Of a stretch of DNA of 64,000 nt, positions 1,568 through 47,692 are shown in pieces. Both the position numbers and the translations under genes were made by a program. The notes beneath the pieces are model-generated. The model saw only the letters and a program-made list of their open reading frames with translations, searched no databases and was not told the DNA's origin. How positions within the stretch are numbered: position 1 is the stretch's first letter; every line of letters starts with the position of its first letter. Location: contig JAEELI010000007.1 of the NCBI GenBank assembly GCA_016288795.1, positions 5,142 to 69,141 on the forward strand, in the 5' to 3' direction. The DNA is from Bacillales bacterium. GTDB lineage: Bacteria; Bacillota_I; Bacilli_A; RF39; UBA660.

Positions 1568-1951
1568 ATGATAAATGAAAATAATAAAGGTAATGATGGA
1601 ATTGATTCATTAAAAACAGTATCATCTAATAATACAATTGAGAGTAATGATACTGATAGTCATATTATATATTATAATGAAAAAGGGAAGAAGTCTTTAT
1701 ATCTGTGCTTTGTCCCTATTGTTATATTTTTGATTGGGTATATACATTCTGGTGGCAGTTTTAGTGAAGGTGATGGCGGTGCAGTTTGGTGGTTGTATTT
1801 TCCATTACTTTTGGCTGTATCACCAATAACGATGTTAGTTAGTATTTATTTAGGAATAAAAGGATTAAAAGGCAAAAAAAAAATCTTATCCTATTTAAGT
1901 CTTTTAATTAATGCATTAGAAATAATATTTGTGATTACTGTGTTTAAATAA
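1568..1951 (+). CDS. Hypothetical small membrane protein
   Basis: 127 aa with a polar N-terminus and 3 predicted TM helices. RBS-like AGAGGTGA lies upstream. Confidence 0.4.
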   Translation: MINENNKGNDGIDSLKTVSSNNTIESNDTDSHIIYYNEKGKKSLYLCFVPIVIFLIGYIHSGGSFSEGDGGAVWWLYFPLLLAVSPITMLVSIYLGIKGLKGKKKILSYLSLLINALEIIFVITVFK

Positions 1952-2217
1952 TAATTAATCAAATTAATATCTGAATTATTGTTGATTATCGTAGCAATAC
2001 TATTTCATAATTCTTTCTTTTGAAAAATTAGAAGAAATAATTATTAAATAATTAGACATTTTTGTTTATACTGCTCCAGCTTTCAGTGTGGTAAAAGCTG
2101 CTATAGCCGCCATAGCTTTTGGATTATGTTTAGCTGCTATGAGTTAAGAATTTTAATTAAAATGAGTTTATACTCATTTTTTTATGTTATAATTATAGAT
2201 AGAATGGAGTAGATAAA

Positions 2218-3939
2218 GTGAGTTCTAGAATAAAAATGAAAAAAAGACTTAAATGGATTTTGTTAGGTTTAATATGTTTAATTGGTATCACTATTCTAGT
2301 TTTATGTCTTAATAAGAACGCAATGAATAAATTGTTCCATAAATCTTTGGCGGGCAATAAAATTGCCTCTGGTCTATATAAATATGATTTTATAAGCAAG
2401 AATAGTGTCAATAGTGTTACAATTAGAGATGATAAAGTATATTACTTAGTATCAAATGAATATACTTATAAATTATATGAATTGAGCATTTGGACTAATG
2501 AATCTAAATTTATTGATGAAGTTAAAAGCGATGTATGTCTTTTGAATAATGACTATATAACTTGCTATAATGGCGCTGCTACTATTGTATATGACTTTAA
2601 TTTCAAAAAAATATATAGTAGTGAGGAAGGCTTTAATATAGTTCCATATCAAGATTCTTATCTTATTATAGAAGAGAAAGATATCTATTTTAATAATAAA
2701 AAAATAAGAACTATTAGGGATGATATTGAAAATATTGACATTATCAATTATTATACTACTACTAATAATACTTATATAATATTTATATTTATAAATGATC
2801 TCTACTTATATGATGTTAAAGAAGATGTCTATACTAAGTTGGATACTAATGAAGTGTATTTATATGAAAATGGCTATTATTATGGCACTAAAGATAAAAT
2901 AGTTATTAAGAATTTAGATAATGGTTCTACTAAGGAATATGATAATTTTAAAAAAGATGAAAATCTTAGCTTTAGTGCAGTTAGAGATAATTTATACTTC
3001 CATATGGACAAAAAGTATTTAAAAATATATAATCTTGAAACTAATAAGTTTAAATATATCAATCATGGATTCAAGAAATCTGTAGATCAAGTTATATTAA
3101 AAGGAGATTATTTGTATTTAACATTCCAAGGCGATAATCCTGAACTATATGTAGTAAAAATAGATGAAATTGATTCAAAAGAAATGACAATTGATGAATA
3201 TAATAAAATTCAAGCTAATAAAGTTAAAACGAGAGTAGAAGAGTTAGAAAAAAAATATACTGGTTTAGAAATAGTGTATGATACTAAAGATTATGAAGAA
3301 ATACAAAAATGGTCAGAAAAATTAGTTGATGAAACAAGTTATGAATATCTTTATGAGGCTTTGGATGCAATAGATACGGTGTTTAGTAAATTAGGAAATG
3401 ATTTCATTGACCTATTTAAACACGATGAATATAAAGGAATAAGAATAATAATAACGGAACAAATAATCACTGGTTCAGATTACAAAATCAGCAATTTGGC
3501 AGGTTTGTCTTTTCCCAATTATACACACTATAATATGATTATTTCTCAAAATGGAATGCCATATGAAAAGGTTTTGTGTCATGAAATGATGCATACAATA
3601 GACTCTAATGCATTAAATTTAAAATATGACATCGGTGGTAATTGGTATGATTATAACCCTAAAGGATTTGAATATAATATAAATAATTATAATGATGACA
3701 ATGCTGAATATACAACTTATTCCTACAGTGATGATGATGTATATTTTGTGGATTCTTATGCTAAAGTTAATCAAAGCGAAGATAGAGCAAGAACTTTTGA
3801 AAATATATGTTACGTAGATGGAGAAAGTATTATTAAGAAATATCCCAATTTATTGAAAAAAGCTGAGTACATAAGAGATGAATTACTTAAGTATTATCCA
3901 TCACTAAAGAATTCAACAATATTTGATAGTATACAATAA
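2218..3939 (+). CDS. Membrane-anchored putative zinc metallopeptidase (HExxH, anthrax lethal-factor-like/zincin fold)
   Basis: N-terminal TM helix (WILLGLICLIGITILVL). The C-terminal domain has HEMMH followed by a downstream E-containing motif (SEDRARTFE), consistent with a zincin third ligand. Confidence 0.5.
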   Translation: MSSRIKMKKRLKWILLGLICLIGITILVLCLNKNAMNKLFHKSLAGNKIASGLYKYDFISKNSVNSVTIRDDKVYYLVSNEYTYKLYELSIWTNESKFIDEVKSDVCLLNNDYITCYNGAATIVYDFNFKKIYSSEEGFNIVPYQDSYLIIEEKDIYFNNKKIRTIRDDIENIDIINYYTTTNNTYIIFIFINDLYLYDVKEDVYTKLDTNEVYLYENGYYYGTKDKIVIKNLDNGSTKEYDNFKKDENLSFSAVRDNLYFHMDKKYLKIYNLETNKFKYINHGFKKSVDQVILKGDYLYLTFQGDNPELYVVKIDEIDSKEMTIDEYNKIQANKVKTRVEELEKKYTGLEIVYDTKDYEEIQKWSEKLVDETSYEYLYEALDAIDTVFSKLGNDFIDLFKHDEYKGIRIIITEQIITGSDYKISNLAGLSFPNYTHYNMIISQNGMPYEKVLCHEMMHTIDSNALNLKYDIGGNWYDYNPKGFEYNINNYNDDNAEYTTYSYSDDDVYFVDSYAKVNQSEDRARTFENICYVDGESIIKKYPNLLKKAEYIRDELLKYYPSLKNSTIFDSIQ

Positions 3940-3972
3940 TAATTGTAAAACAATGCAAAATAGTATTCTGCA

Positions 3973-4302
3973 TTGTTTTTTTATGATAAAAAAATAAATA
4001 TAGAATGTAGTGTTTTAATGACCAAAATACCTAAAAAAACGAAAAAGTTAAATGAATATGGTCTTATATCATTGTGTTTGGCATTGATTCTTCCTTCTGT
4101 ATTGCTTTATGACTATGTTTTATTTCCAAACAAGACTAGTGGAACATATGGGCTATATACACCTTTATATCTTATTTATGGTGAAGGTCCTGTTCCAATT
4201 AATTCGTTAATTTTGGAGTATCAGGTTCAAAAAGAGAAACCAAAGGATTATGCTATGCGGGTTTTGCAGTTATCTTTATTAAAGTTTTATTATTTTTTTT
4301 AG
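3973..4302 (+). CDS. Hypothetical protein (doubtful)
   Basis: ORF only, with no clear RBS. It could be spurious. Confidence 0.2.
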   Translation: MFFYDKKINIECSVLMTKIPKKTKKLNEYGLISLCLALILPSVLLYDYVLFPNKTSGTYGLYTPLYLIYGEGPVPINSLILEYQVQKEKPKDYAMRVLQLSLLKFYYFF

Positions 4303-4441
4303 CAGTATTTGGCGGTCCCCTTTTATTTAAATAGTTATTACGGTATAACAGTATTATTTAAAAGAGATAGACACTGCATAACGAAATAATATTGAGAAAA
4401 AAGGCCAAATGTTGTAAAATAATATTAGGAGGTCAAGAATT

Positions 4442-4828
4442 ATGGAAAAATTAGAGGCTTGTAATGCATTAATAGCTGGATTAAATGCTGCTGAGTTTGC
4501 TGAGTACAAAAAATTTGATGAAGCTGCTGGTGCATACCAAACAGTTCAAGAACCAATACAAGAGGGAATAAAGGAAATTGCAATCCAATATGTTGAGAGT
4601 CTTGCCAATACTGAAGGAAATACATATACAATTTATCGTGGTCAAGATAGCTCAGCTGATTATGCTTGGTTCTTAAGATTTACTGGACTTGATGTTGAAT
4701 TAGTATCTGTAATAGATGATGGAATGCAACATCATGGATATTATAATACTCCTGGAGCAATTCTATATGGAGTTAAAACTTTAGAACATGATAGAGCCGT
4801 TTTAGACGGAAAAACTCAAAGCATGTAA
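4442..4828 (+). CDS. Hypothetical cytoplasmic protein, paralog A of a tandem pair
   Basis: RBS AGGAGG sits 7 nt upstream. It has noticeably higher GC than its neighbours. It shares motifs with the next ORF (IAIQYVE/LAIEYIE, WFLRF/WFLRY, LDGK) and is followed by a stem-loop terminator. Confidence 0.55.
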   Translation: MEKLEACNALIAGLNAAEFAEYKKFDEAAGAYQTVQEPIQEGIKEIAIQYVESLANTEGNTYTIYRGQDSSADYAWFLRFTGLDVELVSVIDDGMQHHGYYNTPGAILYGVKTLEHDRAVLDGKTQSM

Positions 4829-4847
4829 TTTTATAAACGATTAACTA

Positions 4848-4880
4848 AAAAAAGCACTTTATAAAAATGTGCTTTTTTAT
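4848..4880 (+). terminator. Rho-independent terminator
   Basis: aaaaaaGCACtttataaaaatGTGCtttttt, an A-run/hairpin/T-run. Confidence 0.6.
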
Positions 4881-4943
4881 TTAAAAAAGATTGTTTTATT
4901 TAATTTTTAATTTGTGATATAATTAAAGTAGAGGAGGGAAATA

Positions 4944-5306
4944 ATGGAAAATGATATTATTAAGAATAAGCAATTAGCGTGTAAAAATTTAATAGATGAA
5001 ATAAGTAAATTAGAAGTAGAAGATGAACTAAAAAATCTTGCAATTGAATATATTGAAAACTATGCTTCATATGAAGGCATAGAACAAATTCTTCTTGCAG
5101 GCGAAGATTCTTGGGATCATTTTACTACTTTTCATAAATGGTTTCTTAGATATTTAGACTCAAAAGTTGAATTAGTTCACGAATATGGTAACGTAACTTC
5201 AGAAGAAAAAATCTTAAGTGATCCGCTTGGTATTGTCTCAGAAATTGGTAATATGAAATCTAAAGAGTATTCGCTTGATGGAAAAAAGGATTATAAACTA
5301 GAATAG
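4944..5306 (+). CDS. Hypothetical cytoplasmic protein, paralog B of the tandem pair
   Basis: RBS GAGGAGGG. It is paralogous to 4442..4828 and is followed by a near-identical terminator. Confidence 0.55.
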   Translation: MENDIIKNKQLACKNLIDEISKLEVEDELKNLAIEYIENYASYEGIEQILLAGEDSWDHFTTFHKWFLRYLDSKVELVHEYGNVTSEEKILSDPLGIVSEIGNMKSKEYSLDGKKDYKLE

Positions 5307-5401
5307 TTTGTATTTGCTTTTGGCTATGGTAATGTCTTATCTAAAATGAGTAATGTATGTTTTTATTCATCAAGTAGAAATAGTTAACTACTTAAATAAT
5401 T

Positions 5402-5436
5402 AAAAAAACACTTTATTTAAAAAGTGCTTTTTTATT
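5402..5436. terminator. Bidirectional rho-independent terminator (duplicate of the 4848 terminator)
   Basis: aaaaaaCACTTTatttaaAAAGTGcTTTTTT. It serves the convergent genes 4944..5306(+) and 5440..6336(-). Confidence 0.55.
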
Positions 5437-5439
5437 GTA

Positions 5440-6336
5440 TTAAAGACTTAGATCATCTGAAAGTTCTTCGGTTAATTTTTCAACAGAACTGACAAATATA
5501 TGATAGGTGTTATTAATCTTGTCTATAGAATCTACGTGGTTACGTATTCTATTAGCTATTTCATCTTTAGTTTCTTCAGATAAACCCTCAGGATAATCCA
5601 ATCTTATTTTACCAATCTGAATATAAAAATATCCAATATATATACCAACAGAGGAATCATCTGAAGATTTAAGAGCCTCGACAATAGAGTCCATAATATC
5701 ATCAACTGGATACTTTCCATCTTGGCAAGCCTCTTTTAATAATGCATCACTTGGATTATCCAAGTAGTATAAATACTTATATTTATCATCATCAGGCATA
5801 GTTCTTTTGGCACCCAAATCTTTTAAAATTCCAACAATCATGTTTTTTTCATAGTCAAGAGCTGCTGGTGCATTAACTTGAACATTATTAAAAGTTAATT
5901 TATTAGAATCACAGTCAAAATATAATTTTTCACAATCTTTATGATTACTTCTAGCATAATCATCCTTAAGATTTAACAATAATTCATATCTATAATTATT
6001 TGTATCTTGCGTAATATATTCTTGGAATTGATCAAGATCAGCGCCAATATCACAACTAATTATACTTTCTGCATCTTCAAGCCTAACCAAATAATCTCTA
6101 TCAGGTCCATCTTTTTTACAAGAGAAACCAAGTTTTCTTGTCAAAAGATATATAAACAATTTAAATTCATCATCAGACAAATTATACTTGATTGATTCAC
6201 CAGGTTTATAAAATAATTGATCATTAAATGTGCTTATAACTGATACTTTTTTTGCATCTCCTTTATATTCTTTTAACTGTTCAATAGTTTTCTTTTGTAA
6301 TTCTTTAACTAGATTGTATACTGCTTCGTAATTCAT
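5440..6336 (-). CDS. Hypothetical acidic cytoplasmic protein
   Basis: 298-aa ORF on the opposite strand to its neighbours, with RBS-like GGAGAAAACA. No recognisable motif. Confidence 0.5.
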   Translation of the reverse strand: MNYEAVYNLVKELQKKTIEQLKEYKGDAKKVSVISTFNDQLFYKPGESIKYNLSDDEFKLFIYLLTRKLGFSCKKDGPDRDYLVRLEDAESIISCDIGADLDQFQEYITQDTNNYRYELLLNLKDDYARSNHKDCEKLYFDCDSNKLTFNNVQVNAPAALDYEKNMIVGILKDLGAKRTMPDDDKYKYLYYLDNPSDALLKEACQDGKYPVDDIMDSIVEALKSSDDSSVGIYIGYFYIQIGKIRLDYPEGLSEETKDEIANRIRNHVDSIDKINNTYHIFVSSVEKLTEELSDDLSL

Positions 6337-6439: not shown

Positions 6440-6467
6440 TTGATTAAAAAAAATAAAGTGGTATTAT
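6440..6467 (+). promoter_or_regulatory. Putative sigma-A promoter for the radical SAM operon
   Basis: TTGATT-N16-(TGg)TATTAT. This gives a ~190-nt leader before the ATG at 6665. Confidence 0.4.
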
Positions 6468-6664
6468 ATGAATAATATAAGTTGTTAGGGGTGTGATGTG
6501 TTATGCTAAAATGTTTGCTAATTATTTATAACATGTTACGTTTTAATCGACTTATATGCGCTTATAAATTAAATAATTTAGTAGACGATATTAATTCAAT
6601 ATAGAATTTTTGTCGTCTTTTTATTATTGTAATTTAGAATTGAGTTTAGAAAGGATGATGTTTT

Positions 6665-7933
6665 ATGAGAAAAGGAAAATATTTAATTATTTGGCCTGAC
6701 AGTGGCTTATCAACAAAGAATAATCATGTTAATGCCCCATATCATTTTATTCATCTAGGAGAAGTAGTAAACTACTTAAACAAGAAATTAGATAATTCAG
6801 TTGATGTCTTAGATATAGAAGCATCTCAAACTGAATTTCCAAGCTTTATGAAGCAGACTATAGATAATGAATATGATTCAGTTGCATTATTTCTAAATTC
6901 AGAGAATTTGTATAATGGTTTGAAATTAGTTGAATTTGTTAAAGTAATAAATCCAAAGTGTAAAGTAATAGGTTATGGAGAGATGCCGCTTTATTTACCT
7001 AAGTTTTTTAAAACAACTCAATTTGATGCCATAGTCGATAAGAATTGTGATCAAGAGTTAGCAATTCTCGATTATTTTAAATATGGAAAACAAGAAAACA
7101 ACGATAAACTTCATGATGTTTTACTTATTAATAATAATCAATTAATTAGAACTCCTAAAAAAGAAGGGTTAGACCCAAGAGAGTGGGGATTGTCCTCTAA
7201 GGAAGAAGTTCCAATTGATAAATATTTAGAGATGGAAGGAAAAAACCAATATGTTATGACCTTATCTAGAGGTTGTCCATATGGATGTAAATATTGTAAC
7301 GCAACTAGTTATTATGGAACATGTGAAAGAAGAAGAAATATTGGTTCTATAATAAATTTTATCAATGAAAATGATTATGATTATTATAAGTTTTTTTCTC
7401 CGAATTTCACTTTAAATAAAAAAGAAGCATTAAAACTATGTAAGGCAATAATAATGAATGGCAAGCCCATTAAATGGTCTTGCACTACTAGACCTGATTT
7501 ACTCGACGATGAAGAATTAATTAAAGCCATGGCAATGGCTGGATGTTATAAAATAGCTATAGGTATAGAATCTATATCAAATAAAGATTTAGAGTCTATA
7601 GATAAAAGATATGATAGTGAAGTCATTGCTAAAGGAATTAATATGTTAAAGAAATATGGAATAGAGTATAAGGCTTTAGTTATGTTTGGAGTCCCTAATC
7701 AAACCAAAGATAGTATTCTATATACTATAGAGTTTTTAAAAGATATGGGACTAACAATAAGACCTACAGCATATACACCTTTTTATGAAATGAATCATAA
7801 TATGACAGCTGAACAAATTTCTAGATACGATAAAAGAACTTATTATGATGGAATAGATAATTTATCATATGGAGATTTTTTGAGATTAATTTATGATACT
7901 GAGAATTACGAAAGGATATTAAAGAAAGAATAA
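6665..7933 (+). CDS. B12-binding domain radical SAM protein
   Basis: CPYGCKYC (CxxxCxxC) radical SAM motif after a ~190-aa N-terminal Rossmann-like B12-binding-type domain. RBS AAAGGA. Confidence 0.75.
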   Translation: MRKGKYLIIWPDSGLSTKNNHVNAPYHFIHLGEVVNYLNKKLDNSVDVLDIEASQTEFPSFMKQTIDNEYDSVALFLNSENLYNGLKLVEFVKVINPKCKVIGYGEMPLYLPKFFKTTQFDAIVDKNCDQELAILDYFKYGKQENNDKLHDVLLINNNQLIRTPKKEGLDPREWGLSSKEEVPIDKYLEMEGKNQYVMTLSRGCPYGCKYCNATSYYGTCERRRNIGSIINFINENDYDYYKFFSPNFTLNKKEALKLCKAIIMNGKPIKWSCTTRPDLLDDEELIKAMAMAGCYKIAIGIESISNKDLESIDKRYDSEVIAKGINMLKKYGIEYKALVMFGVPNQTKDSILYTIEFLKDMGLTIRPTAYTPFYEMNHNMTAEQISRYDKRTYYDGIDNLSYGDFLRLIYDTENYERILKKE

Positions 7934-8883
7934 TGTTTAAAATTGAAAATACTTTAGAAAATATAATTAAAAACGAAACTCCTGAATGTGTTTTATTTTC
8001 TGGCGGTATTGATAGCTCAGCAATTTTATATGAAAGCAAAAAATATAATGATAATGTTAAGGGTATTACTGTAGGAATAAAAGAGAATAATTCTGAAGAT
8101 ATTCGTTATAGTTCTTTGGTATCCTCTAAGTTAGATATTGACTTACTAGTTTATGAAGTAGATAAAGAATATGTTTTATCTAAAGTAGATGATGCAGTTT
8201 GTTTATTAGAGTCTTTTAATCCTGAATGGATATCTTCAACGATAACTCTTTTACTTGGAGCTGAGTATGCTAGTAAAGCCGGTTATAAGAAGATTGGCAG
8301 TGGAGAAGGAGCAGATGATATATTTGGTAGTTTTCCATTCTTTAAAGCCTATGAAGGCTCTAGGAAAGAGTTAAATTACATAATGAAATCTAGATTTGAA
8401 AAAATACCAGTTATGACTGATATTGTATCTGAAGCAAATAATGCTAAAGGTATTACACCATTCAGAAATAAAGAAATGGTTGAATGCGTCGAAAGAATTC
8501 CTTTATATATTAGAATGCAGGAAACTGCTAATATAAAGACTAAGTTTCCACTTAGAATGAGTTATATGGGTATAATTCCCCATGAAGCAATAGTTAGGCC
8601 TCAAACTATGGCATTTACTGGTTCAGGAGTTTATAGTATTATTAAAGAACTTGAAAAAGATGTATCCGATAGGGAATTTGCTAGAGCTTGTGAAGAATTC
8701 TTTCCTTTTAAGAATAAATTAGAATATGTTTTATTTAAAAAATATGTTCATTACTATAATTACTCTAGAGCTACCAACAATTATTGTATTCATTGTGGTA
8801 GCTCCATGGGTAACAATTTAGTAAATTGTCCATGTTGTCAAACAGTTCAATATAAAAAAAGAGAGTTAAAATTTAATGCTTAA
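7933..8883 (+). CDS. Asparagine synthetase C-domain-like adenylating enzyme (PP-loop ATP pyrophosphatase, no glutaminase domain) with C-terminal Cys cluster
   Basis: SGGIDSS PP-loop, GSGEGADDIFGSFPFF (the AsnB GEGADELFGGY-like motif) and PFRNKEMVE (the PFLD-like motif). C-terminal CIHC...CPCC zinc-ribbon. Its start overlaps the stop of the radical SAM gene (ATGA coupling). Confidence 0.65.
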   Translation: MFKIENTLENIIKNETPECVLFSGGIDSSAILYESKKYNDNVKGITVGIKENNSEDIRYSSLVSSKLDIDLLVYEVDKEYVLSKVDDAVCLLESFNPEWISSTITLLLGAEYASKAGYKKIGSGEGADDIFGSFPFFKAYEGSRKELNYIMKSRFEKIPVMTDIVSEANNAKGITPFRNKEMVECVERIPLYIRMQETANIKTKFPLRMSYMGIIPHEAIVRPQTMAFTGSGVYSIIKELEKDVSDREFARACEEFFPFKNKLEYVLFKKYVHYYNYSRATNNYCIHCGSSMGNNLVNCPCCQTVQYKKRELKFNA

Positions 8884-8910
8884 TTTAAAAAAAAAATTAA
8901 TGTAAAAAAT

Positions 8911-8931
8911 GCTAGATTAATCTAGTATTTT
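8911..8931 (+). terminator. Weak stem-loop plus T-run (possible terminator)
   Basis: gCTAGAttaaTCTAGtattttttg. Confidence 0.3.
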
Positions 8932-9027
8932 TTGTGTTATAATTATATAAGTGAATTTTTAGTTTTTAATTATATATTTTTAAAATATAAATATAATATA
9001 TAGAAACTTAGAATTGAGTTGAATAAT

Positions 9028-12000
9028 ATGTTAGAGATAAAGAATATAAGTAAAGTATATAAAACTGAAGGCTTTGAACAAAAAGCTCTAGATAAAGTTA
9101 GTATTAACTTTAGAGAGCATGAATTTGCTAGCATATTAGGTCCATCTGGTTCTGGTAAAACTACTTTATTAAATATTCTTGGGGGATTAGATGAATATAC
9201 TTCAGGTGATTTAGTAATCAATGAAATTAGCACTAAAGAGTTCAAAGATAGAGATTGGGATTCATATCGTAATCATAGAGTTGGTTTCATATTTCAAAGT
9301 TATAATCTAATTACCCATCAGACTGTTCTAAAAAATGTTGAACTTGCTTTAACTTTATCTGGTATATCTAAAAACGAAAGAAGAGAGAAAGCAATTAAGG
9401 CTCTTAAGGATGTTGGTTTAGAAAAACATATTAATAAAAAACCAAATCAATTATCTGGTGGACAAATGCAAAGAGTTGCTATTGCTAGAGCCTTAATTAA
9501 TAACCCTGATATTATTTTAGCAGATGAACCAACTGGAGCTTTAGACTCAGAAACTAGTGTGCAAATATTAGAAATTCTCAAAAAAATATCTAAGGAAAAA
9601 TTAGTAATAACAGTAACTCATAATCCAGAATTAGCTGAAAAATATTCTACTAGAATAATTAATATTAAAGATGGAAAAATAATATCTGATTCTAATCCTT
9701 ATGATGGGAAGATTAATACTAGAGAATCAAAAGAAAAAGCGGATATAAAGAATAGAAGAACAAAAATGAGTTTTTTGACAGCTTTGTCTTTGTCATTCAA
9801 TAATTTAATGACTAAAAAAGGAAGAACTTTGTTAGTTTCTGTTGCTGGTTCCATAGGGATAATAGGTATAGCATTAATACTTGCTGTATCTACTGGTTTT
9901 CAAAATTACGTTGATTCTATTCAAGAAGATACTTTAACCTCTTATCCCCTTACAATTCAACAAGAATCAACTGATATAGCAAGCGTTCTTTTATCTATGC
10001 GTGCAGGTTCTAACGAAAAATTGGATAGTAATGAAGTAAAAGAACAACAATATATTACTACAATGCTTTCTAATATTAGAGCTAACGATTTAAAAAGTTT
10101 TAAAAAATATTTAGAAAATAATTATAAAAAAGTAAATAAAGATTTAGCTAATGTTCAGTATTCTTATAGTGTAGATCCAAATATTTACACTATAGACGCA
10201 ACTAACAAAATTGCAAAAATTAATCCTTCAAGAATGTTTAGTTCTATGATGGGAAGTAATAATATAATGAATTCATATTCAAGTATGGCATCTATATTTT
10301 CCCAAATGGTTGATAATAGAGAAGAAATTGAAGATGACTATGAAGTTTTGGCTGGAAGATGGCCTAAAAAATATGATGAAATGTTAGTAGTGTTATCAGA
10401 ACCAAATTCTATATCTGATTTGTTAGTTTATACACTAGGATTTCGTGATACTGAAGAACTTAATAAAATGATTACAAGCATTATGAGTGGAGAAACAGTA
10501 GATGTTAATAATGAACCATTAACACTATCTTATGATGATATAATGAATGTCAATTTAAAATTAATAATGCCATCTGATACATATAAATATAACTCTAAAT
10601 ATGATGTTTATGAAGATATGACTGAAGATGAGAATTATATGAAAAATTTATACAATAATTCTCATAGTTTAAAAATAGTCGGAATAGTATGCGCTAAAGA
10701 AGGAGTGTCTTCTACTGCGTTACGACCAGGTGTTGCATACACATCAGATTTAATTAATCATATTATTGATTACTCAAAAAACACTAATATAGTTAAAAAG
10801 CAAATAGATAAGAATGAAATAGATGTATTTTCTGGTTCTAGATTTGATAATAAGAAAAATGATTTTGATTTTGAATTTAAAGATTTAGTTAAAGTTGATA
10901 ATGCTAAGTTACAAAGTGCCTTTAATGTAAATATTGATCAAAAATCCCTAGAGGAGCAAACGCAAAATTATATGAAACAAATATCTGATTCTATCACTAC
11001 AGATATTACTCCAGCTAAAGAGTTATTTGATAATAATTTAAATAATTTTGCTAAAGGTTTATTAAATACTCTTAGTGGTGAAATAGCTACTAATAATATA
11101 GATAACTTAGTTAATAATTATCTAGAAACTAGTGATGTAGATAGCGCCTTAGCTAATATGGAAAAAAGTTATGTAATTCCTAAAGAAACCTTTAAAACCG
11201 CATATAATGGATTATTAAAAGGTTTATTGCAAGCCTATATTACTGGATATAATACATACATGAAATCAATTAATCCTAATTGGCCAATAGATTCAGATAA
11301 TCCTAAGGCCGTAATTGTTAATGAATTAAAAGAAACAATAGTTTCATCTTATATGAAAAGTGCTCCAATAATTGGAACAAGTGAAAACATGGCAAAGGCT
11401 ATGACTGAAGCGTTAATGAAAAAGACTATATTGACAAAAGTAGGAGAACTAACTGCTAATTTGAGTTCTAGCTTTGCTACGGCCTTTAATGTAGATCCAA
11501 ATAAAATAGCCTCAGCATTTACTCTTAACTTTAGTGAAAATGAACTTGCTAGAGTTGTAAATGCCATGATGAATCCTAATCAAGCCACCCAAAAATCTAA
11601 TCTAATATCTTTAGGATATCAAGATTTAGATGAACCAACATACATTTCATTTTACTTTAATAGTTTTGATGGAAAAGAGCATTTCTTATCGTTTATAGAT
11701 GAATATAATAATGTAGTTAAAGAAGATAAAAGAATTAATTATTCTGATACTACAGGTATTATTATGTCATCAGTTAAAACTATAGTTAATGCTGTAAGTT
11801 ATGTTTTGATTGCCTTTGTTTCTATTTCATTAGTTGTGTCAAGTATTATGATTGGAGTAATAACTTATATATCTGTATATGAAAGGACTAAAGAAATCGG
11901 TATTCTTAGGGCTATCGGAGCTTCTAAAGGAAATATTTCGTCTATATTTAATGCTGAAACATTTATTATTGGCTTATTATCGGGCTTATTTGGTATAGGT

Positions 12001-12198
12001 GTTTCTTATGCTTTAATACCTATAATTAATACTATATTGCATCACTATACTGGAAATATTCCATTATCCGCAACTTTAGCATTTAATCATGCTCTAAGAT
12101 TAATTATTTTAGCTATTATATTAACTTTATTGGGTGGATTAATACCAGCACGTGCAGCATCTAAAAAAGATCCAGTTGAGGCTTTAAGAAGCGAATAA
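9028..12198 (+). CDS. MacB-type ABC transporter, fused ATPase + FtsX-family permease with a large extracytoplasmic domain
   Basis: Walker A GPSGSGKTT, signature LSGGQMQR and Walker B ILADEPT. There is a TM helix at ~aa 270, a ~650-aa extracytoplasmic region and a C-terminal FtsX-like 3-TM bundle. The ORF track starts at TTG 9019; the first ATG is at 9028. Confidence 0.8.
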   Translation: MLEIKNISKVYKTEGFEQKALDKVSINFREHEFASILGPSGSGKTTLLNILGGLDEYTSGDLVINEISTKEFKDRDWDSYRNHRVGFIFQSYNLITHQTVLKNVELALTLSGISKNERREKAIKALKDVGLEKHINKKPNQLSGGQMQRVAIARALINNPDIILADEPTGALDSETSVQILEILKKISKEKLVITVTHNPELAEKYSTRIINIKDGKIISDSNPYDGKINTRESKEKADIKNRRTKMSFLTALSLSFNNLMTKKGRTLLVSVAGSIGIIGIALILAVSTGFQNYVDSIQEDTLTSYPLTIQQESTDIASVLLSMRAGSNEKLDSNEVKEQQYITTMLSNIRANDLKSFKKYLENNYKKVNKDLANVQYSYSVDPNIYTIDATNKIAKINPSRMFSSMMGSNNIMNSYSSMASIFSQMVDNREEIEDDYEVLAGRWPKKYDEMLVVLSEPNSISDLLVYTLGFRDTEELNKMITSIMSGETVDVNNEPLTLSYDDIMNVNLKLIMPSDTYKYNSKYDVYEDMTEDENYMKNLYNNSHSLKIVGIVCAKEGVSSTALRPGVAYTSDLINHIIDYSKNTNIVKKQIDKNEIDVFSGSRFDNKKNDFDFEFKDLVKVDNAKLQSAFNVNIDQKSLEEQTQNYMKQISDSITTDITPAKELFDNNLNNFAKGLLNTLSGEIATNNIDNLVNNYLETSDVDSALANMEKSYVIPKETFKTAYNGLLKGLLQAYITGYNTYMKSINPNWPIDSDNPKAVIVNELKETIVSSYMKSAPIIGTSENMAKAMTEALMKKTILTKVGELTANLSSSFATAFNVDPNKIASAFTLNFSENELARVVNAMMNPNQATQKSNLISLGYQDLDEPTYISFYFNSFDGKEHFLSFIDEYNNVVKEDKRINYSDTTGIIMSSVKTIVNAVSYVLIAFVSISLVVSSIMIGVITYISVYERTKEIGILRAIGASKGNISSIFNAETFIIGLLSGLFGIGVSYALIPIINTILHHYTGNIPLSATLAFNHALRLIILAIILTLLGGLIPARAASKKDPVEALRSE

Positions 12199-12214
12199 TT
12201 GGAGTATATTTAAT

Positions 12215-13654
12215 ATGAAGAAGAATATAATAAAAATTGGTATATTATCTTTAGCCTTAACAGTTATTTCAACTATATTCATTATTACAATGGGTAGAAC
12301 TCATACAGCTACTTTTATTTCTAAATCTAAAAATGATATTTTAATAGTTCAAGATAATAGTATAATTGAAGTTCTTAAAAAAGAAAAAAAAGGTGAAGAA
12401 TATATTGTTAAATTTAAAGGTAAAAAGCCTGGTAGAGTTTTTCTTTTATTAGAAAAAGATGATTATAGTGAAGAAAAACTCTACTATGTTCATAAATCCA
12501 TGGTTATTACTGATAATTCTTATTTTGGATATGCTAGAGGTTCAGAAATAATACCAATTTCTATTTCAATAGTTTTATTATATACATTATACATATTAAT
12601 CCAAAGATATAGAGAAAGTTGTAAAAATAATCTATACCAATATAGAAACGTGGCATATTTAGGTATTATAATATTTTTTGCTAGTTGGACTCTTTCTAAT
12701 ATATTATCATTATTCCATTATCAAGGAGTATATGATACAGTTGATAAAACTATTAATTCTGTGTCACTTATATCATTTTATCTACTTCCCATAGCAATCA
12801 TAACCTTTATATTAGTTACTATAAGTAATATTAGATTAATAAAAAAAGAGGGAGTATCATTTAGAAATATGTTTGGATTATTCTTAGGAATAATCACTTG
12901 CTTGTTACCCTTGGTTCCAGATAGAATGTATAACATTTTATTACAATCTCAGAAGTTTAATATATATAATCTTAATTCACTAGGACCTTACCTATATAAC
13001 TTTATTGAAGCTTTAATATATCTAGTTGTAGCATACCTAGAATGTATATTAATAGGAACAATAGTTATTGCCATTAAATCAGTTAAGAAAAAAGTAGAAC
13101 TTAATAAAGACTATATTATTATTTTAGGTTGTAAAATAAAAAAAGATGGATCATTAACTCCTCTTTTAAAGGGAAGAGTAGATAGAGCTTTAGCTTTTAG
13201 AAACGAACAATTAAAGGAAACAGGAAAAGACTTAATATTTGTTACCTCTGGTGGTAAAGGTGATGATGAAATAATATCTGAAGCTAAAGCAATGAAAGAT
13301 TATTTGATAGAAAATGGAATTAAAGAAAAAAATATTATTTTAGAAAGCAAATCTACTAATACTTATCAAAATATTAAGAATTCTTATAAATTAATTAATA
13401 ATAAAGAAGCAAATGTTGCTTTTGCTACAACTAATTATCATGTTTTTAGAGCTGGTTTGTTAGCAACAGCTCAAGGATTAAAACTAGAAGGCGTCGGTAG
13501 TCCAACTAAAGCTTATTTTTGGATTAATGCCTTCATTCGAGAATTTATTGGAACTCTTTATTCTGAGAGAAAAAAACATATTATTGTATCTGGTATAATA
13601 ATTATAATAATAGCAGTAATGATCTCAATAACATATTTTGCAAATAATATATAG
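12215..13654 (+). CDS. Polytopic membrane protein with C-terminal DUF218 (YdcF/ElyC/SanA-like) domain
   Basis: Multiple TM helices, then DYIIILGC...GRVDRALAF...IFVTSGGKG...ESKSTNTYQN, typical of DUF218. RBS GGAG. Confidence 0.65.
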   Translation: MKKNIIKIGILSLALTVISTIFIITMGRTHTATFISKSKNDILIVQDNSIIEVLKKEKKGEEYIVKFKGKKPGRVFLLLEKDDYSEEKLYYVHKSMVITDNSYFGYARGSEIIPISISIVLLYTLYILIQRYRESCKNNLYQYRNVAYLGIIIFFASWTLSNILSLFHYQGVYDTVDKTINSVSLISFYLLPIAIITFILVTISNIRLIKKEGVSFRNMFGLFLGIITCLLPLVPDRMYNILLQSQKFNIYNLNSLGPYLYNFIEALIYLVVAYLECILIGTIVIAIKSVKKKVELNKDYIIILGCKIKKDGSLTPLLKGRVDRALAFRNEQLKETGKDLIFVTSGGKGDDEIISEAKAMKDYLIENGIKEKNIILESKSTNTYQNIKNSYKLINNKEANVAFATTNYHVFRAGLLATAQGLKLEGVGSPTKAYFWINAFIREFIGTLYSERKKHIIVSGIIIIIIAVMISITYFANNI

Positions 13655-13670
13655 AAATATAGGTGATTTT

Positions 13671-14369
13671 ATGAACAAAATAATAAGAATTAGTATTTTA
13701 ATTAAGATAATTACTATTATCTCTGGTATATACGGTATTATTAGAACATATTTTAGTCCTTTAACGTTTACTTATTGGACTACTTTATCAAATATATTTG
13801 TTATTGTAGTAACATTTATATTTTTAGTTAAAGATTATTATTATTTGAACAATAAAAAGATAGATTTTAGTTCAAAACTTTATATAATTAAATTTCTATC
13901 TGTAATTTCTATTACTTTAACATTTATTGTTTATTTAACCTTATTAGCACCAGTTATGGAAGGTGGAATAATTCATTCTTATCTAGCTAATGGTGCTGGA
14001 GGTTTATTTGTTCATTTTGTGACACCGTTGCTTTCAGTATTAGATTTTTTCCTTTTCGATACTGAATATAAACCTAGTTCAATTCACGCGATATATGCAA
14101 TTATTCCTGCCTTAGTATATGTTTTATTCGTTGTTATAGCGTCTTCTTTAGGTTTAAGATGGGGAACAATGAAAGCACCATATAACTTTTTAAATTACGG
14201 TGCTCCAACTGGTTGGTTTGGTTTTGATTTAAAACAATTCGGATGGGAATCTCTAGGAATTGGAGTATTCTATATGATAATTATATTATCAGTAATATTT
14301 ATCTTAATTGGATTATTATTTCTTTGGCTTAGAAATAATATTAATAATAGAAGGAAAGGTGCAAAATGA
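13671..14369 (+). CDS. Hypothetical polytopic membrane protein
   Basis: 6-7 predicted TM helices with RBS AGGTGA before ATG 13671. The ORF track gives 13638. Confidence 0.5.
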   Translation: MNKIIRISILIKIITIISGIYGIIRTYFSPLTFTYWTTLSNIFVIVVTFIFLVKDYYYLNNKKIDFSSKLYIIKFLSVISITLTFIVYLTLLAPVMEGGIIHSYLANGAGGLFVHFVTPLLSVLDFFLFDTEYKPSSIHAIYAIIPALVYVLFVVIASSLGLRWGTMKAPYNFLNYGAPTGWFGFDLKQFGWESLGIGVFYMIIILSVIFILIGLLFLWLRNNINNRRKGAK

Positions 14370-15031
14370 ATAATATTGAAAAATTAATTAAAGAAAGACA
14401 TTCTGTTCGTAGTTATTTGGATAAAGAAATTGAACTAGATAAAGTTAATGAACTTAATAAATTGATTGAAGAAGCAAATAAAGAGGCAAATTTAAATATT
14501 CAATTAATCTTAAATGATAGGGAAGTATTTGATAAATATGTTCTTCATTATGGTAAAATCAAAAATTGCGCAAACTATATTGCTTTAGTTGGACCAAACG
14601 ATAGTAAATTGCCAGAAAAAGTTGGATATTATGGCGAAAAAATAGTTTTAAAAGCGCAAGAATTGGGCTTAAATACCTGCTGGGTAGCGGGAACATATAA
14701 AAAGAGCGCTGTTAAAGCAACCATAAATAAGTCTGAAAAATTAGTATGCATTATTGCAATAGGCTACGGTGAAACAAATGGAATTACTAGAAGGAGCAAA
14801 ACTATTCAAGACGTTACGGATTCTAAAGAATCTCCAGATTGGTTTAAAAAAGGAATTGAATATGCTTTACTTGCTCCGACTGCAATGAATCAACAAAAGT
14901 TTAAATTCAAGTATATAGGAGATTATGAAGTGAAAGCAATTCCTGGAGTAGGTCCTATGAATAAAATAGACTTAGGTATTGTAAAATATCACTTTGAATT
15001 GGGAGCAAATAAAAAAATAATATGGAAGTAA
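14366..15031 (+). CDS. Nitroreductase family protein
   Basis: RHSVRSY near the N-terminus and the size match the nitroreductase fold. Its start overlaps the upstream stop. Confidence 0.7.
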   Translation: MNNIEKLIKERHSVRSYLDKEIELDKVNELNKLIEEANKEANLNIQLILNDREVFDKYVLHYGKIKNCANYIALVGPNDSKLPEKVGYYGEKIVLKAQELGLNTCWVAGTYKKSAVKATINKSEKLVCIIAIGYGETNGITRRSKTIQDVTDSKESPDWFKKGIEYALLAPTAMNQQKFKFKYIGDYEVKAIPGVGPMNKIDLGIVKYHFELGANKKIIWK

Positions 15032-16083: not shown

Positions 16084-16497
16084 ATGATGGTAGTGAAAAG
16101 AGTTAGTGCGAGGGGAATTATCATCACAGATAAAGGATTAGCAGTAATTTTTAGAAGAAAGAAAGTTGGAGACACTGTTCGTGAGTATTATGCAATTCCA
16201 GGGGGAGGAGTAGAAGAAGGAGAAAGCATAGAAGAAGCTTTAAAAAGAGAATTATGGGAAGAGTTAGCTATTAAAGTCAATATAAAAGGATTTGCTTTTT
16301 CAATAGAAAACGAATATAGAATTGAATATTATTATAATTGCGAATACATTTCAGGAGATTTCCGACTTAATGGTGAAGAATTAGATAGAATTACTGATGA
16401 CAATTATTATGAACCAACTTTTGTGGATATTAATAATATCGATAAGTATGATATAGTCCCTGAAGTAAAGGATTATTTGAAGGGGGGGTATAAATGA
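16084..16497 (+). CDS. NUDIX hydrolase
   Basis: Nudix box GGGVEEGESIEEALKRELWEELAI. The start is uncertain: ATG 16084, ATG 16087 or GTG 16093. The last has the best RBS spacing. Confidence 0.75.
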   Translation: MMVVKRVSARGIIITDKGLAVIFRRKKVGDTVREYYAIPGGGVEEGESIEEALKRELWEELAIKVNIKGFAFSIENEYRIEYYYNCEYISGDFRLNGEELDRITDDNYYEPTFVDINNIDKYDIVPEVKDYLKGGYK

Positions 16498-36530: not shown

Positions 36531-37544
36531 ATGGAGAAAAGAATTATAGACGTAAATGCTTCAGATGAAGATGTTTTTGAAAAAAATATAAGACCTGAAT
36601 CATTAGATGAATATGTGGGTCAAAATGAAATTAAAGAAAACTTAAGAGTCTTTATTAAAGCAGCTTTAATGCGAAATGAACCATTAGATCACGTTTTATT
36701 ATATGGTCCTCCTGGACTAGGTAAAACAACTTTGGCTCATATTATTGCCAATGAATTAGGATCTACCCTAAGAACTGCAAGTGGTCCTTCAATTGAGAAA
36801 ACTGGTGACTTAGCTGCAATTTTGTCAAATCTTGAACCAGGAGATGTATTATTTATAGATGAGATACATAGAATGCCATCATTTATTGAAGAAATACTTT
36901 ATCCAGCAATGGAAGATTTTGAATTGGACTTAATTATTGGTGGAGATGGTAAAAGTAAGAGTATTAAAATAAATTTGCCACCTTTTACTTTAGTTGGCGC
37001 TACGACCAGGGCAGGAGACTTATCTAGTCCCTTAAGAGATCGTTTTGGAATTATTTCTAAGCTGGATTATTATACATTTGATGAATTAAAAGATATAGTT
37101 ATTAGAAGCGGTCGAGTTTTTGATATTAAAGTTGAAGATGATGCGGCAATGGAATTAGCAAAAAGAAGCAGAAAAACACCTAGAGTTGCTAATAGGTTAT
37201 TCAGAAGAGTTCGTGACTTCGCTATAGTTGAAGGTAATGGAATTATAGACCTAGACATCACTAATCGTGCTTTAAAAAGATTGCATGTAGATGATTCAGG
37301 ATTAGATAATATAGATAGAGAATATTTAACAAGTTTAATTGAAAAGTTTAATGGGGGTCCTGTCGGAGTTGAAACAATAGCAACAAGCATTGGGGAAGAA
37401 GTAACTACAATTGAAGATGTAGTTGAGCCATATTTATTACAAGAAGGCTTTATAAAAAGAACTAGAAGTGGACGTGTTGCAACAGAAAAAGCTTTCAATA
37501 TTATTGGATATAAATATAATCAAGGCTTATTTAAAGAGGAGTAA
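36531..37544 (+). CDS. ruvB: Holliday junction ATP-dependent DNA helicase RuvB
   Basis: [11 protein letters not shown] Walker A, DEIHR and the full RuvB length. Confidence 0.95.
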
Positions 37545-43951: not shown

Positions 43952-45394
<1,443 letters not shown>

Positions 45395-47338: not shown

Positions 47339-47398
47339 AAAAAGATAGAGAACTACTCTCTTTTTTTTTGCTTTAAAACTCACTCCTACACATGTATA

Positions 47399-47477
47399 TA
47401 TCCTTATATAAATATAAATAATAGGATTACATGCGCATAATCCTTATATTAATATAAATTATAAGGATATAATGCGC
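47399..47477. repeat. Tandem pair of ~40-bp units, each containing an internal palindrome
   Basis: Unit 1 is atccttatataaatataaataataggat + tacATGCGCATa. Unit 2 is atccttatattaatataaattataaggat + ataATGCGCttg. Unit 2 has perfect 9-bp arms (ATCCTTATA/TATAAGGAT) with an 11-nt spacer. It lies between convergent genes. Confidence 0.6.
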
Positions 47478-47666
47478 TTGAATTTTTTTATAAAGTATTC
47501 GCAAATTTTTTTCTCAATTTATTTTGCACTAAATATTTTAATTTTAATATATTATTATTATAAATAAATATAATTCATTATTATTAAACTAACCCAAAAT
47601 TAATCAAGTCTGTGTTTTTCATAATGTATATTATGTTAACCAACGCTTGAGTTGCAATTTCTGATA

Positions 47667-47692
47667 ATAAAAAAGGACTAGTTTTCTAGTCC
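47667..47692 (-). terminator. clpB rho-independent terminator
   Basis: On the minus strand, AGGACTAGaaaaCTAGTCCTttttt. It overlaps the clpB stop codon. Confidence 0.7.

Follow-up and report, generated by a model that had tools for sequence, protein, structure and literature searches.

Positions 6440–15031 of the 64,000-nt Bacillales sequence analysed here (the window) contain genes for a radical SAM enzyme, an AsnB-like enzyme, an ABC-ATPase/FtsX fusion, a DUF218 protein, a further membrane protein and a nitroreductase. Do these six genes form a single modification and export system, as a preliminary description proposed, or do they belong to separate units with separate roles? All six ORFs are located at the coordinates given in that description. 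The functional unit, however, is the two-gene operon at 6665–8883, which comprises the radical SAM and AsnB-like genes (the pair). The features on which this section draws are:

6440–6467, + strand: promoter-like site (TTGATT, 16 nt, TATTAT, TG extension)
6475–6664, + strand: structured 5′ leader of the pair (190 nt; MFE −45.4 kcal/mol, z = −4.2)
6665–7933, + strand: radical SAM enzyme gene (422 aa; Pfam PF04055, 68.8 bits)
7933–8883, + strand: AsnB-like PP-loop enzyme gene, putatively adenylating (316 aa; PF00733, 89 bits)
8898–8939, + strand: intrinsic terminator (A-tract, 19-bp hairpin, U-tract; −14.8 kcal/mol, z = −6.2)

Boundaries of the operon

The two genes are translationally coupled, as had been proposed. 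Their junction is TAATG, with a 1-nt overlap; the ATGA overlap previously ascribed to them is that of the membrane protein and nitroreductase genes (14366–14369). The promoter-like site scores 9/12 with its TG extension and would give a leader of ~190 nt. The promoter and leader length proposed earlier are plausible only, because shuffled sequence contains such sites equally often (70 found versus 66 expected). The leader itself comprises a long hairpin (~6475–6557) and a terminator-like hairpin (6583–6618; −14.5 kcal/mol, z = −4.7) followed by UUUUUAUU, and is a possible attenuator. Searches of the leader against Rfam returned no match and no riboswitch, and no conservation of its sequence was found in relatives.

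The terminator predicted after the AsnB-like gene is borne out by a strongly folding hairpin and U-tract, which none of 200 shuffles matched in stability. A consensus scan missed this site because the hairpin has fewer than three G-C pairs. In relatives, the same position is occupied by NUDIX-like and HAD genes.

The genes further downstream are real. The ABC_tran and FtsX fusion is 1059 aa (from TTG at 9019) or 1056 aa (from ATG at 9028) long, not the 1057 aa first stated. The DUF218 protein, the membrane protein, which has a sub-threshold Pr6Pr-like match, and the TM1586-type nitroreductase are as described. Orthologues of the DUF218 protein (61–66% identity) were found at four loci, in four other contexts, without the window's order of ABC, membrane-protein and nitroreductase genes. 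Because of these differing contexts and the terminator 3′ of the pair, the four genes form a transcription unit of their own, made up of unrelated neighbours that share one orientation.

It is very unlikely that all six genes instead act together to tailor a peptide or envelope component, with MacB-type export and with the DUF218, membrane and nitroreductase proteins as accessories. Such a system would fit the shared orientation and tight spacing of the genes, as well as a second-tier relative of the AsnB-like enzyme that is fused to a MobA-like nucleotidyltransferase. ABC genes also recur near the pair: at loci L013 and L014, which represent one further lineage, an 869-aa orthologue (~50% identity along its full length) immediately precedes the radical SAM gene, and L030 has ABC exporters 3′ of the cassette described below. 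The recurrence at L013 and L014, otherwise unexplained, would reflect chance or inherited synteny; the clade nearest to them (L005, L006 and L009) has no ABC gene. The neighbour set comprised 668 ORFs of at least 70 aa in the loci compared, and by our estimate two ABC adjacencies among several hundred ORFs are about what chance would give, because very long FtsX/MacB-type proteins occur elsewhere in such genomes (L115). In related loci, no DUF218, Pr6Pr-like or nitroreductase gene stands beside the pair, and no glycosyltransferase or envelope-pathway gene is conserved there. With a strong terminator between the units, and a second operon conserved neither with the pair nor internally, the six-gene reading is already weakened by the comparative data.

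The pair belongs to a conserved four-gene cassette

The adjacency of the two enzyme genes, on which the preliminary description had staked its case, survives in related loci. They are neighbours in 32/32 related loci with upstream DNA (window excluded; loci not de-duplicated) and at the P0002 locus, separated by small gaps or overlapping, and their adjacency persists down to 33% identity and across unrelated flanks. The window pair is a cut-down copy of a cassette that occurs chiefly in Clostridia and Bacilli of the gut and whose full order is radical SAM enzyme, AsnB-like enzyme, divergent NUDIX hydrolase and HAD phosphatase, the last sometimes fused to an adenylate kinase.

A NUDIX-like gene comes next in almost all relatives, including every Clostridia and Bacilli locus whose nucleotide sequence extends far enough downstream. 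At P0002, a locus without nucleotide sequence, a HAD gene lies directly 3′ of the pair, with no NUDIX gene. Six listed homologues are 509–520 aa long, and in the two of these that were aligned (P0037 and P0043) the NUDIX-like domain is a C-terminal extension. The HAD gene, whose product carries the motifs DxDG and DD and matches NT5C/HAD_2 weakly, is present in most loci; its match to 5′-nucleotidase families is marginal (25.6 bits versus a cut-off of 24.8). At L001 and L042 it is fused to an adenylate kinase (TIGR01351, 1.2e-32) with an AMP-kinase lid. The distant L030 (AsnB-like protein, 34% identity to that of the window; radical SAM enzyme, 312 bits) keeps the radical SAM, AsnB-like and NUDIX (PF00293, 1.5e-17) genes. 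On the short contig L029, the AsnB-like gene and a NUDIX-family ORF are retained; its upstream DNA includes only the L030-type 238–245-aa gene and does not reach the radical SAM position.

The window's own clade shows a graded loss, with four genes at P0004 and P0005, three at P0002 and two in the window, whose 64 kb contain no homologue of the cassette NUDIX-like or HAD genes. Frameshifted copies of the cassette are present in several other lineages.

These partners, namely NUDIX, HAD and sometimes adenylate kinase, point to nucleotide-linked small-molecule chemistry and not to the envelope. Together with the terminator between the units, they tell against the envelope modification and export role first suggested.

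The cassette also bears on whether the pair tailors a ribosomally synthesised peptide (RiPP), with the AsnB-like protein as a lasso-type cyclase, C-terminal amidase or nitrile synthetase and the radical SAM enzyme methylating or crosslinking the peptide. Lasso cyclases are among the AsnB-like enzymes of RiPP pathways. Sub-threshold NCBIfam matches of the radical SAM enzyme to RiPP radical SAM enzymes (ApyD, 2.1e-18; cut-off 750 bits) would be in keeping with such a role. AsnB-like enzymes are also described as acting on RiPPs, for example nitrilobacillins. Even so, RiPP tailoring is extremely improbable. At 24 loci, the 800 nt flanking the cassette on each side contain no conserved small ORF; only near-identical loci have any in common. 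Conserved genes for a protease, RRE or leader peptidase are likewise absent, in agreement with the earlier statement that the locus has no obvious protease or precursor. The radical SAM enzyme has no SPASM or twitch extension and only two further conserved cysteines, and the conserved partners are nucleotide-type hydrolases.

The radical SAM enzyme

The identification of this gene stands, with the motif CPYGCKYC (CX3CX2C) supplying the cluster cysteines C204-x3-C208-x2-C211. The protein has a Rossmann-like domain of cobalamin-binding type at its N terminus, followed by the radical SAM barrel, and the orthologues listed are 58–76% identical, with many invariant positions. NCBIfam gave solely sub-threshold matches to BchE, AprD4, PhpK and ArsL. 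An AF2 model (pLDDT 88.5) searched with Foldseek placed AprD4 first (TM 0.73), followed by TsrM, OxsB and TokK (TM 0.65, a poorer match than AprD4); MiaB was also among the fold matches (TM ~0.60).

AprD4 is also the best sequence match (7.3e-16), and OxsB aligns over its full length. Both share the Rossmann-like domain, the radical SAM barrel and a single cluster with the enzyme of the window, but at only 15–18% identity. They differ from each other in cobalamin, which OxsB uses and AprD4 lacks, and from the cassette in their partners: an AprD3 reductase and an OxsA HD phosphohydrolase, versus AsnB-like, NUDIX and HAD proteins here. OxsB, which carries out the oxetanocin ring contraction on dAMP, dADP or dATP, acts on nucleotides together with its phosphohydrolase partner. 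The substrate of AprD4, a radical SAM 1,2-diol dehydratase, is an aminoglycoside sugar and not a nucleotide, which counts against the nucleotide chemistry proposed below and favours the six-gene system.

The AsnB-like enzyme

The AsnB-like protein begins directly at its synthetase domain, so the reported absence of a glutaminase domain is correct. Like AsnB, beta-lactam synthetase, CarA and TsnB9, it keeps the SGGxDS PP-loop and the GEGxD(D/E) Mg/ATP motif; unlike them, it has no N-terminal glutaminase or vestigial domain, has lost the RANK motif and has gained a C-terminal Cys4 ribbon. The motifs SGGIDSS and GEGADD and the ribbon (C285-x2-C288-x10-C299-x2-C302, conserved) were read correctly at the outset; the supposed PFxD reads PFRN. 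The catalytic lysine (Lys449 in AsnB, Lys443 in beta-lactam synthetase) is replaced by an invariant Gln224. Adenylation by this enzyme is unproven because that lysine is essential in both AsnB and beta-lactam synthetase.

PP-loop adenylation of nucleobase oxo groups and radical SAM modifiers of RNA are both well established. The pair might modify a tRNA or rRNA nucleoside in the manner of QueE/QueC, TYW1, MiaB, TilS or TtcA, with the zinc ribbon helping to bind RNA, and the NUDIX and HAD partners might process RNA ends or clear by-products; we consider this reading unlikely. The conserved ribbon is compatible with this, as are weak PP-loop matches of the AsnB-like enzyme to QueC, MnmA, LarE and NAD-synthase, the MiaB fold match, the very high conservation of the radical SAM enzyme, and a match of the HAD protein to phrog_415 (4.7e-11), a phage family that bears a polynucleotide kinase annotation. 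However, the best match is clearly to the AsnB synthetase fold rather than the TilS or TtcA type, and the fused kinase matches adk models, not polynucleotide kinase. No THUMP, PUA, TRAM or S4 domain was found in any cassette protein, and the cassette is patchy, variable in context and frameshifted in several lineages, unlike core translation genes.

Relationship to characterised pathways

As first supposed, the pair falls outside curated and characterised pathways. Every NCBIfam match is far below its cut-off (QueC, 19.6 bits versus 150), and our searches found no literature on the combination of a radical SAM and an AsnB-like enzyme and no curated family for the cassette.

The QueE/QueC module likewise joins a radical SAM enzyme to an ammonia-dependent PP-loop enzyme with a Cys4 zinc site, and the toyocamycin and tubercidin (7-deazapurine) clusters likewise start from a nucleotide (GTP). 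In toyocamycin biosynthesis, tailoring is carried out by the HAD phosphatase ToyI. The radical SAM enzyme here, unlike QueE, is of the two-domain, B12-binding-like class, and the pair has no linked genes for GTP cyclohydrolase, QueD or phosphoribosyltransferase. Both the tubercidin and the toyocamycin pathway use a radical SAM enzyme and also include tailoring of the Nudix type, which in tubercidin is performed by the Nudix hydrolase TubG (PMC6112128).

Thienamycin biosynthesis employs the AsnB-like ThnM, the B12 radical SAM enzyme ThnL, and ThnR and ThnH, which convert CoA to pantetheine (PMC6097109, PMC9407657). The same four enzyme classes as in the cassette act consecutively in one pathway (ThnM, ThnL/K/P, ThnR and ThnH). 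Freeman et al. 2008 reportedly identified ThnR as a Nudix enzyme and ThnH as a HAD enzyme. The cassette differs in having no CarB/ThnE crotonase, ThnT or oxygenases, and its AsnB-like enzyme differs from beta-lactam synthetase in lacking the N-terminal domain and the catalytic lysine. The CoA-Nudix signature, LLTxR[SA]x3Rx3Gx3FPGG, is absent from the consensus of the cassette NUDIX proteins.

A proposed role for the pair

We give about an even chance to the reading that the pair performs a radical step and an ATP-dependent adenylation or amidation on a nucleotide-linked small molecule. The nucleotide handle has its sole basis in the domain families of the neighbouring genes, and we infer both the substrate class, which would be an NTP, an NDP-linked compound or CoA, and the sequence in which the reactions occur. 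The radical SAM protein, as an AprD4/OxsB/TsrM-type two-domain enzyme with one [4Fe-4S] cluster, would use radical chemistry to rearrange or dehydrate the nucleotide-handled molecule or to form a bond in it. The AsnB-like PP-loop enzyme would adenylate a carboxylate or oxo group of the intermediate and then transfer an amine or free ammonia to it, with release of AMP and PPi. Where present, the NUDIX hydrolase would cut the pyrophosphate handle, the HAD phosphatase would strip the remaining phosphate, and the fused adenylate kinase would recycle AMP.

A more specific form of this nucleotide-linked chemistry is a viperin-like antiviral or antimetabolite factory, in which the radical SAM enzyme makes a toxic or chain-terminating analogue from an NTP, and the phosphorylation state of the analogue is set by the kinase, NUDIX and HAD proteins. 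Viperin operons often carry kinases, and a nucleotide-kinase fusion exists here. The genomic contexts vary, with serine recombinases nearby in the window and at L024, the cassette is decaying in some lineages, and the radical SAM core weakly matches the PADLOC candidate PDC-M51A (1.3e-11). We nevertheless doubt this form: matches of the cassette proteins to defence families do not extend past generic cores, no member of the core families was found in phage genomes or IMG/VR contigs, the flanks hold no recognisable defence genes, and viperin systems contain nothing equivalent to the amidating enzyme.

Under the general scheme of a radical and an amidating step on a nucleotide-linked small molecule, the last steps in the window would be missing or left to housekeeping enzymes. 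The window pair, on its own, may make a different product from that of the full cassette, or may be on its way to being lost.

Genomic context and gene content

The contig segment is an ordinary bacterial chromosome with a G+C content of ~27%, and the window also carries genes for Obg, RuvB (36531–37544), SHMT, Tgt (queuine tRNA-ribosyltransferase; 43970–45097), ComEC, and FtsW. The presence of the Tgt gene indicates that the organism uses queuosine. Between 1 and 47 kb, nearly every gene is on the same strand. Such one-directional layouts with tiny gaps prevail in these genomes, and tight spacing therefore carries little information on functional clusters here. At ~47000–48500, the cumulative GC skew peaks and gene orientation switches from + to −. 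This convergence of genes and skew suggests that the region is the replication terminus.

Six co-directional ORFs on the + strand are considered here:

6665–7933, +, radical SAM protein (422 aa)
7933–8883, +, AsnB-like protein (316 aa)
9019–12198, +, ABC ATPase fused to an FtsX permease (Pfam and NCBIfam)
12215–13654, +, polytopic DUF218 protein (Pfam and NCBIfam)
13638–14369, +, membrane protein
14366–15031, +, TM1586-type nitroreductase (Pfam and NCBIfam)

The preliminary description had identified these ORFs, and every one of its domain calls was upheld by Pfam and NCBIfam. The motifs CPYGCKYC, SGGIDSS, and GEGADD, as well as the C-terminal Cys4 ribbon, are all present in the proteins encoded by the first two genes, hereafter the pair. 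Two details require correction. The junction between the pair genes is TAATG, with a 1-nt overlap, instead of the ATGA that had been described, and the supposed PFxD motif of the AsnB-like protein reads PFRN.

Directly upstream of the pair are a large serine recombinase gene (PF07508; 22–1362) and then five ORFs without a family match (1568–6336). Three recombinase ORFs are also found just 3′ of the corresponding gene cassette in a related locus (L024). The pair may adjoin an integrated element or be part of one.

The radical SAM and AsnB-like genes are a conserved pair

A word-indexed search with the AsnB-like protein returned 70 homologue clusters, while in 1.84 billion representatives searched exhaustively with HMMER, scores above 330 bits were reached by only about six 50%-identity clusters. 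The AsnB-like homologues thus form a small family, nearly all from uncultured gut Clostridia and Bacilli, whose hosts include rabbit, mouse, sheep, chicken, and human. ORF clustering, followed by re-scoring with family HMMs, was applied to 31 sequence sets (30 related loci and the window). In every locus with upstream sequence, the radical SAM gene is immediately 5′ of the AsnB-like gene, at spacings that range from small overlaps to small gaps, while the genes flanking the pair vary from locus to locus. Conservation of the two genes as neighbours, on which the earlier proposal had been made to depend, is therefore borne out. We conclude with high confidence that the functional unit is the pair and not the six genes. 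The pair is a cut-down member of a conserved, uncharacterised cassette built from known enzyme classes, in which the radical SAM and AsnB-like genes are followed by a divergent NUDIX-like gene and a HAD phosphatase gene. No description of the combination of a radical SAM enzyme with an AsnB-like enzyme was found in the searchable literature.

The four genes 3′ of the pair had been described together with it as one modification and export system. The ABC protein does have the MacB-type architecture that had been claimed, with ABC_tran at residues 24–172, FtsX at 932–1052, and a large extracytoplasmic domain, although it is not an orthologue of E. coli MacB itself (NF007826, 279 bits against 966). 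A functional link between this putative exporter and the pair is, however, unsupported, both by the related loci and by the terminator that the preliminary description had itself placed 3′ of the AsnB-like gene. This terminator is a strong hairpin with a U-tract (8898–8939; z = −6.2). In the related loci compared, no DUF218, Pr6Pr-like membrane protein, or nitroreductase gene is found near the pair, and four loci with DUF218 orthologues (61–66% identity) represent four different contexts, which argues against the six genes forming one system. The only gene of this second operon that recurs beside the pair is the ABC gene: directly 5′ of the radical SAM gene, L013 (3674–6283) and L014 (3676–6285) encode an orthologue of 869 aa with ~50% identity to the ABC protein along its entire length. 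This recurrence is the point in favour of the pair acting with an exporter, a reading we regard as very unlikely. The ABC gene is absent from the clade nearest to these two loci, and such genomes encode similar ABC proteins at other sites too, so that in our view the adjacency is compatible with chance or inherited synteny. The proposed system-level novelty of the six-gene cluster does not hold.

The radical SAM enzyme

Membership of the radical SAM superfamily is clear, with a PF04055 match of 68.8 bits (cut-off 29.5) and a C204-x3-C208-x2-C211 cluster motif that is invariant among orthologues. A Rossmann-like domain at the N-terminus precedes the radical SAM barrel, which holds this single CX3CX2C cluster, and orthologues of the enzyme are strongly conserved (58–76% identity, with many invariant positions). 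Only two further cysteines, C273 and C294, are invariant, which indicates that the enzyme is not of the SPASM or twitch type. Consistent with this rejection, there is no C-terminal Cys-rich domain, no Pfam or NCBIfam match to SPASM, and the barrel is followed by only a short stretch up to the last residue, 422.

AprD4 is the top match by sequence as well as by fold (TM 0.73), and TsrM, OxsB, TokK, CysS, and MgmA come next. The Foldseek matches to TsrM, OxsB, TokK, and CysS show that a fold of the cobalamin-binding Rossmann type is present, and many orthologues carry a precomputed PF02310 match, which the window protein itself did not give. AprD4 has the same N-terminal domain, yet it is a diol dehydratase that does not use cobalamin. 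All matches to curated NCBIfam models fall far under their cut-offs, and the QueE model gave no match.

The AsnB-like enzyme

The AsnB-like protein had been described as lacking a glutaminase domain. It indeed has no Pfam match to GATase and aligns only to AsnB residues 214–504. The PP-loop and the GEGADD motif are retained. The RANK motif, which binds aspartate in AsnB, is not, and the position of AsnB Lys449 (Lys443 in beta-lactam synthetase) is occupied throughout the family by an invariant Gln224 within the motif RPQTMAF. Scores against the curated AsnB models are low (NF006949, 81 bits against 499; TIGR01536, 74 against 267). On these grounds, a glutamine-hydrolysing asparagine synthetase B was rejected: the Ntn glutaminase and RANK motif are missing, the lysine is replaced, and the curated scores are below cut-off. 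A beta-lactam or carbapenam synthetase was likewise rejected. Profile matches to these enzymes are weak (E = 2.9e-14 to 1.8e-09), Lys443 is absent, and no crotonase (CarB/ThnE) or CEAS partner gene is found in any related locus examined.

Resemblance to QueC is confined to the PP-loop region (PF06508, 24 bits, residues 20–128; TIGR00364, 19.6 bits against 150). With this partial QueC match and no QueE match, preQ0 synthesis was rejected. Together with the low curated scores, this agrees with the earlier view that the pair does not belong to a characterised pathway.

In a broader second tier of stand-alone AsnB-like proteins of ~320 aa (P0316–P0342), the C-terminal zinc ribbon is shared and the canonical WRxKxP retained; one of them is fused to a MobA-like nucleotidyltransferase. 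Because this tier keeps the lysine, its substitution by Gln224 is specific to the family partnered with a radical SAM enzyme.

Cassette partners and their decay

Wherever Clostridia and Bacilli loci extend far enough 3′, a gene for a NUDIX-like protein of ~190 aa comes after the pair. Among the AsnB-like homologues listed, six of 509–520 aa appear to carry the NUDIX-like domain as a C-terminal fusion, and the extension is seen in the two that were aligned. Next in most loci is a HAD phosphatase gene, whose product has DxDG and DD motifs and matches NT5C/HAD_2 weakly. It is present in two or three copies in some loci, and its product is fused to adenylate kinase in L001 and L042. The HAD protein had no informative match in the PDB. 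A distant variant is found in an unclassified MAG (L030), with the order radical SAM, a 238-aa protein of no known family, AsnB-like, and a canonical NUDIX; the 238-aa protein had no informative match in Pfam, NCBIfam, or the PDB. In a Planctomycetota contig too short to cover the radical SAM position (L029), the same gene as in L030 (238–245 aa) precedes the AsnB-like gene and an ORF of the L030 NUDIX family.

Within the clade of the window, the cassette shrinks in a graded manner, from four genes (loci of the homologues P0004 and P0005) to three (P0002) and two (the window). The 64 kb contain no cassette-type NUDIX or HAD gene. Located 7 kb 3′ of the pair (16084–16497) is a gene for a canonical NUDIX hydrolase of 137 aa. 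As it is unrelated by HMM to the cassette family, its role as an in-trans replacement would be speculative.

In several independent MAGs, frameshifts split the radical SAM gene (L008, L012, L023, and L027) or the NUDIX-like gene (L005, L006, L009, L013–L015, and L028). They suggest either decay of the cassette in some lineages or recurrent assembly errors in AT-rich runs. Their occurrence in several MAG lineages would make the cassette dispensable.

An Amidase_3 gene (CwlD-like N-acetylmuramoyl-L-alanine amidase) is found directly 3′ of the cassette in L004/L021, L008, L019, and L024. L004 also has a polysaccharide deacetylase gene 3′ of the cassette, and the L001 cassette is located amid SpoIVF-like and SpoVA genes. 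These neighbours could reflect inherited synteny or a link to sporulation.

Leader of the pair

The 190-nt leader of the pair (6475–6664) is far more stably folded than its shuffled counterparts (z = −4.2), and at its end is a terminator-like hairpin (6583–6618) followed by a U-tract. Promoter-like hexamers are as frequent in shuffled sequence as in the window. Rfam gave no riboswitch match at gathering score in the window and eight related loci, and nothing for the leader at E values up to 10. Searches of the upstream regions of relatives with nhmmer and blastn recovered no common motif except among near-identical loci. A riboswitch-controlled operon was thus rejected. Since the leader of the window is itself structured, it may be a lineage-specific attenuator.

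Readings based on peptides, defence, and phages

The absence of a protease and precursor had been noted from the window, and this extends to its relatives. In 24 loci, the 800 nt flanking the cassette on each side contain no conserved small ORF, and no protease or RRE family is conserved near the pair in related loci. A lasso-peptide cyclase system or RiPP precursor was rejected on this basis, and the broader idea that the pair tailors a RiPP is highly improbable.

PADLOC returned only generic-core matches for the cassette proteins (PDC-M51A, 42 bits, to the radical SAM core; QueC, 19.5 bits) and none specific to any of them, and a known anti-phage defence system was rejected. No member of the core family was detected in PHROGs, the phage GenBank collection, or IMG/VR, which led us to reject a phage origin. 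Among the matches listed from a scan of JGI metagenomes, there were only generic AsnB proteins (≤33% identity), with no cassette and no core-family member.

Proposed chemistry and precedents

NUDIX and HAD hydrolases together are the standard route by which a nucleotide handle is stripped from a small molecule, from NDP-X or NTP to X-phosphate and then to X. AsnB-type adenylation releases AMP, and the adenylate kinase found in some cassettes fits such a pathway. Taken together, these features make conversion of a nucleotide-linked small molecule the most likely role of the cassette, for which we put the chances at about even. The radical SAM enzyme would perform difficult C–H chemistry on the nucleotide-linked molecule, the AsnB-like enzyme would adenylate and amidate, or ligate, a carboxylate or oxo group, and the NUDIX and HAD hydrolases would release the dephosphorylated product.

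The same logic is found in the biosynthesis of deazapurine nucleoside antibiotics, which employs a PP-loop enzyme (QueC/ToyM) and a HAD phosphatase (ToyI). Both a radical SAM enzyme and a Nudix hydrolase take part in these pathways (PMC6112128). Thienamycin biosynthesis is a second precedent, where the AsnB-like ThnM and the B12 radical SAM enzyme ThnL act in one pathway, and ThnR and ThnH degrade CoA to pantetheine (PMC6097109; PMC9407657). As membership of both precedent families was rejected, the likeness concerns working logic and not family.

Two further readings appear unlikely, and to a similar degree. One is that the pair modifies RNA; the other is a viperin-like antiviral version, which would be a special case of the nucleotide-handle model. 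Going further with that model, it is conceivable, though we hold this more tentatively than the model itself, that in gut Clostridia and Bacilli the cassette makes a new metabolite derived from a nucleotide or CoA. This metabolite could be a signal, a cofactor, or a nucleoside with antimetabolite or antiviral activity. Its synthesis would couple a radical SAM reaction of a new kind to an atypical AsnB-type ligase that lacks the canonical lysine, with the pair in the window as the minimal catalytic core.

The observations in the preliminary description were thus largely correct, and their interpretation is partly supported. If the proposed chemistry is true, the cassette represents a small, sharply conserved, uncharacterised radical SAM pathway of gut, mostly uncultured Firmicutes. 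It is a clean and testable target whose small size of two to four genes makes it easy to express, and the absence of the catalytic lysine adds an intriguing feature. A nucleotide-linked substrate could prove to undergo a radical reaction of a new kind, the AsnB-like family could clarify how catalysis of the AsnB type proceeds when the canonical lysine is missing, and the product of the cassette could be a new microbiome metabolite.
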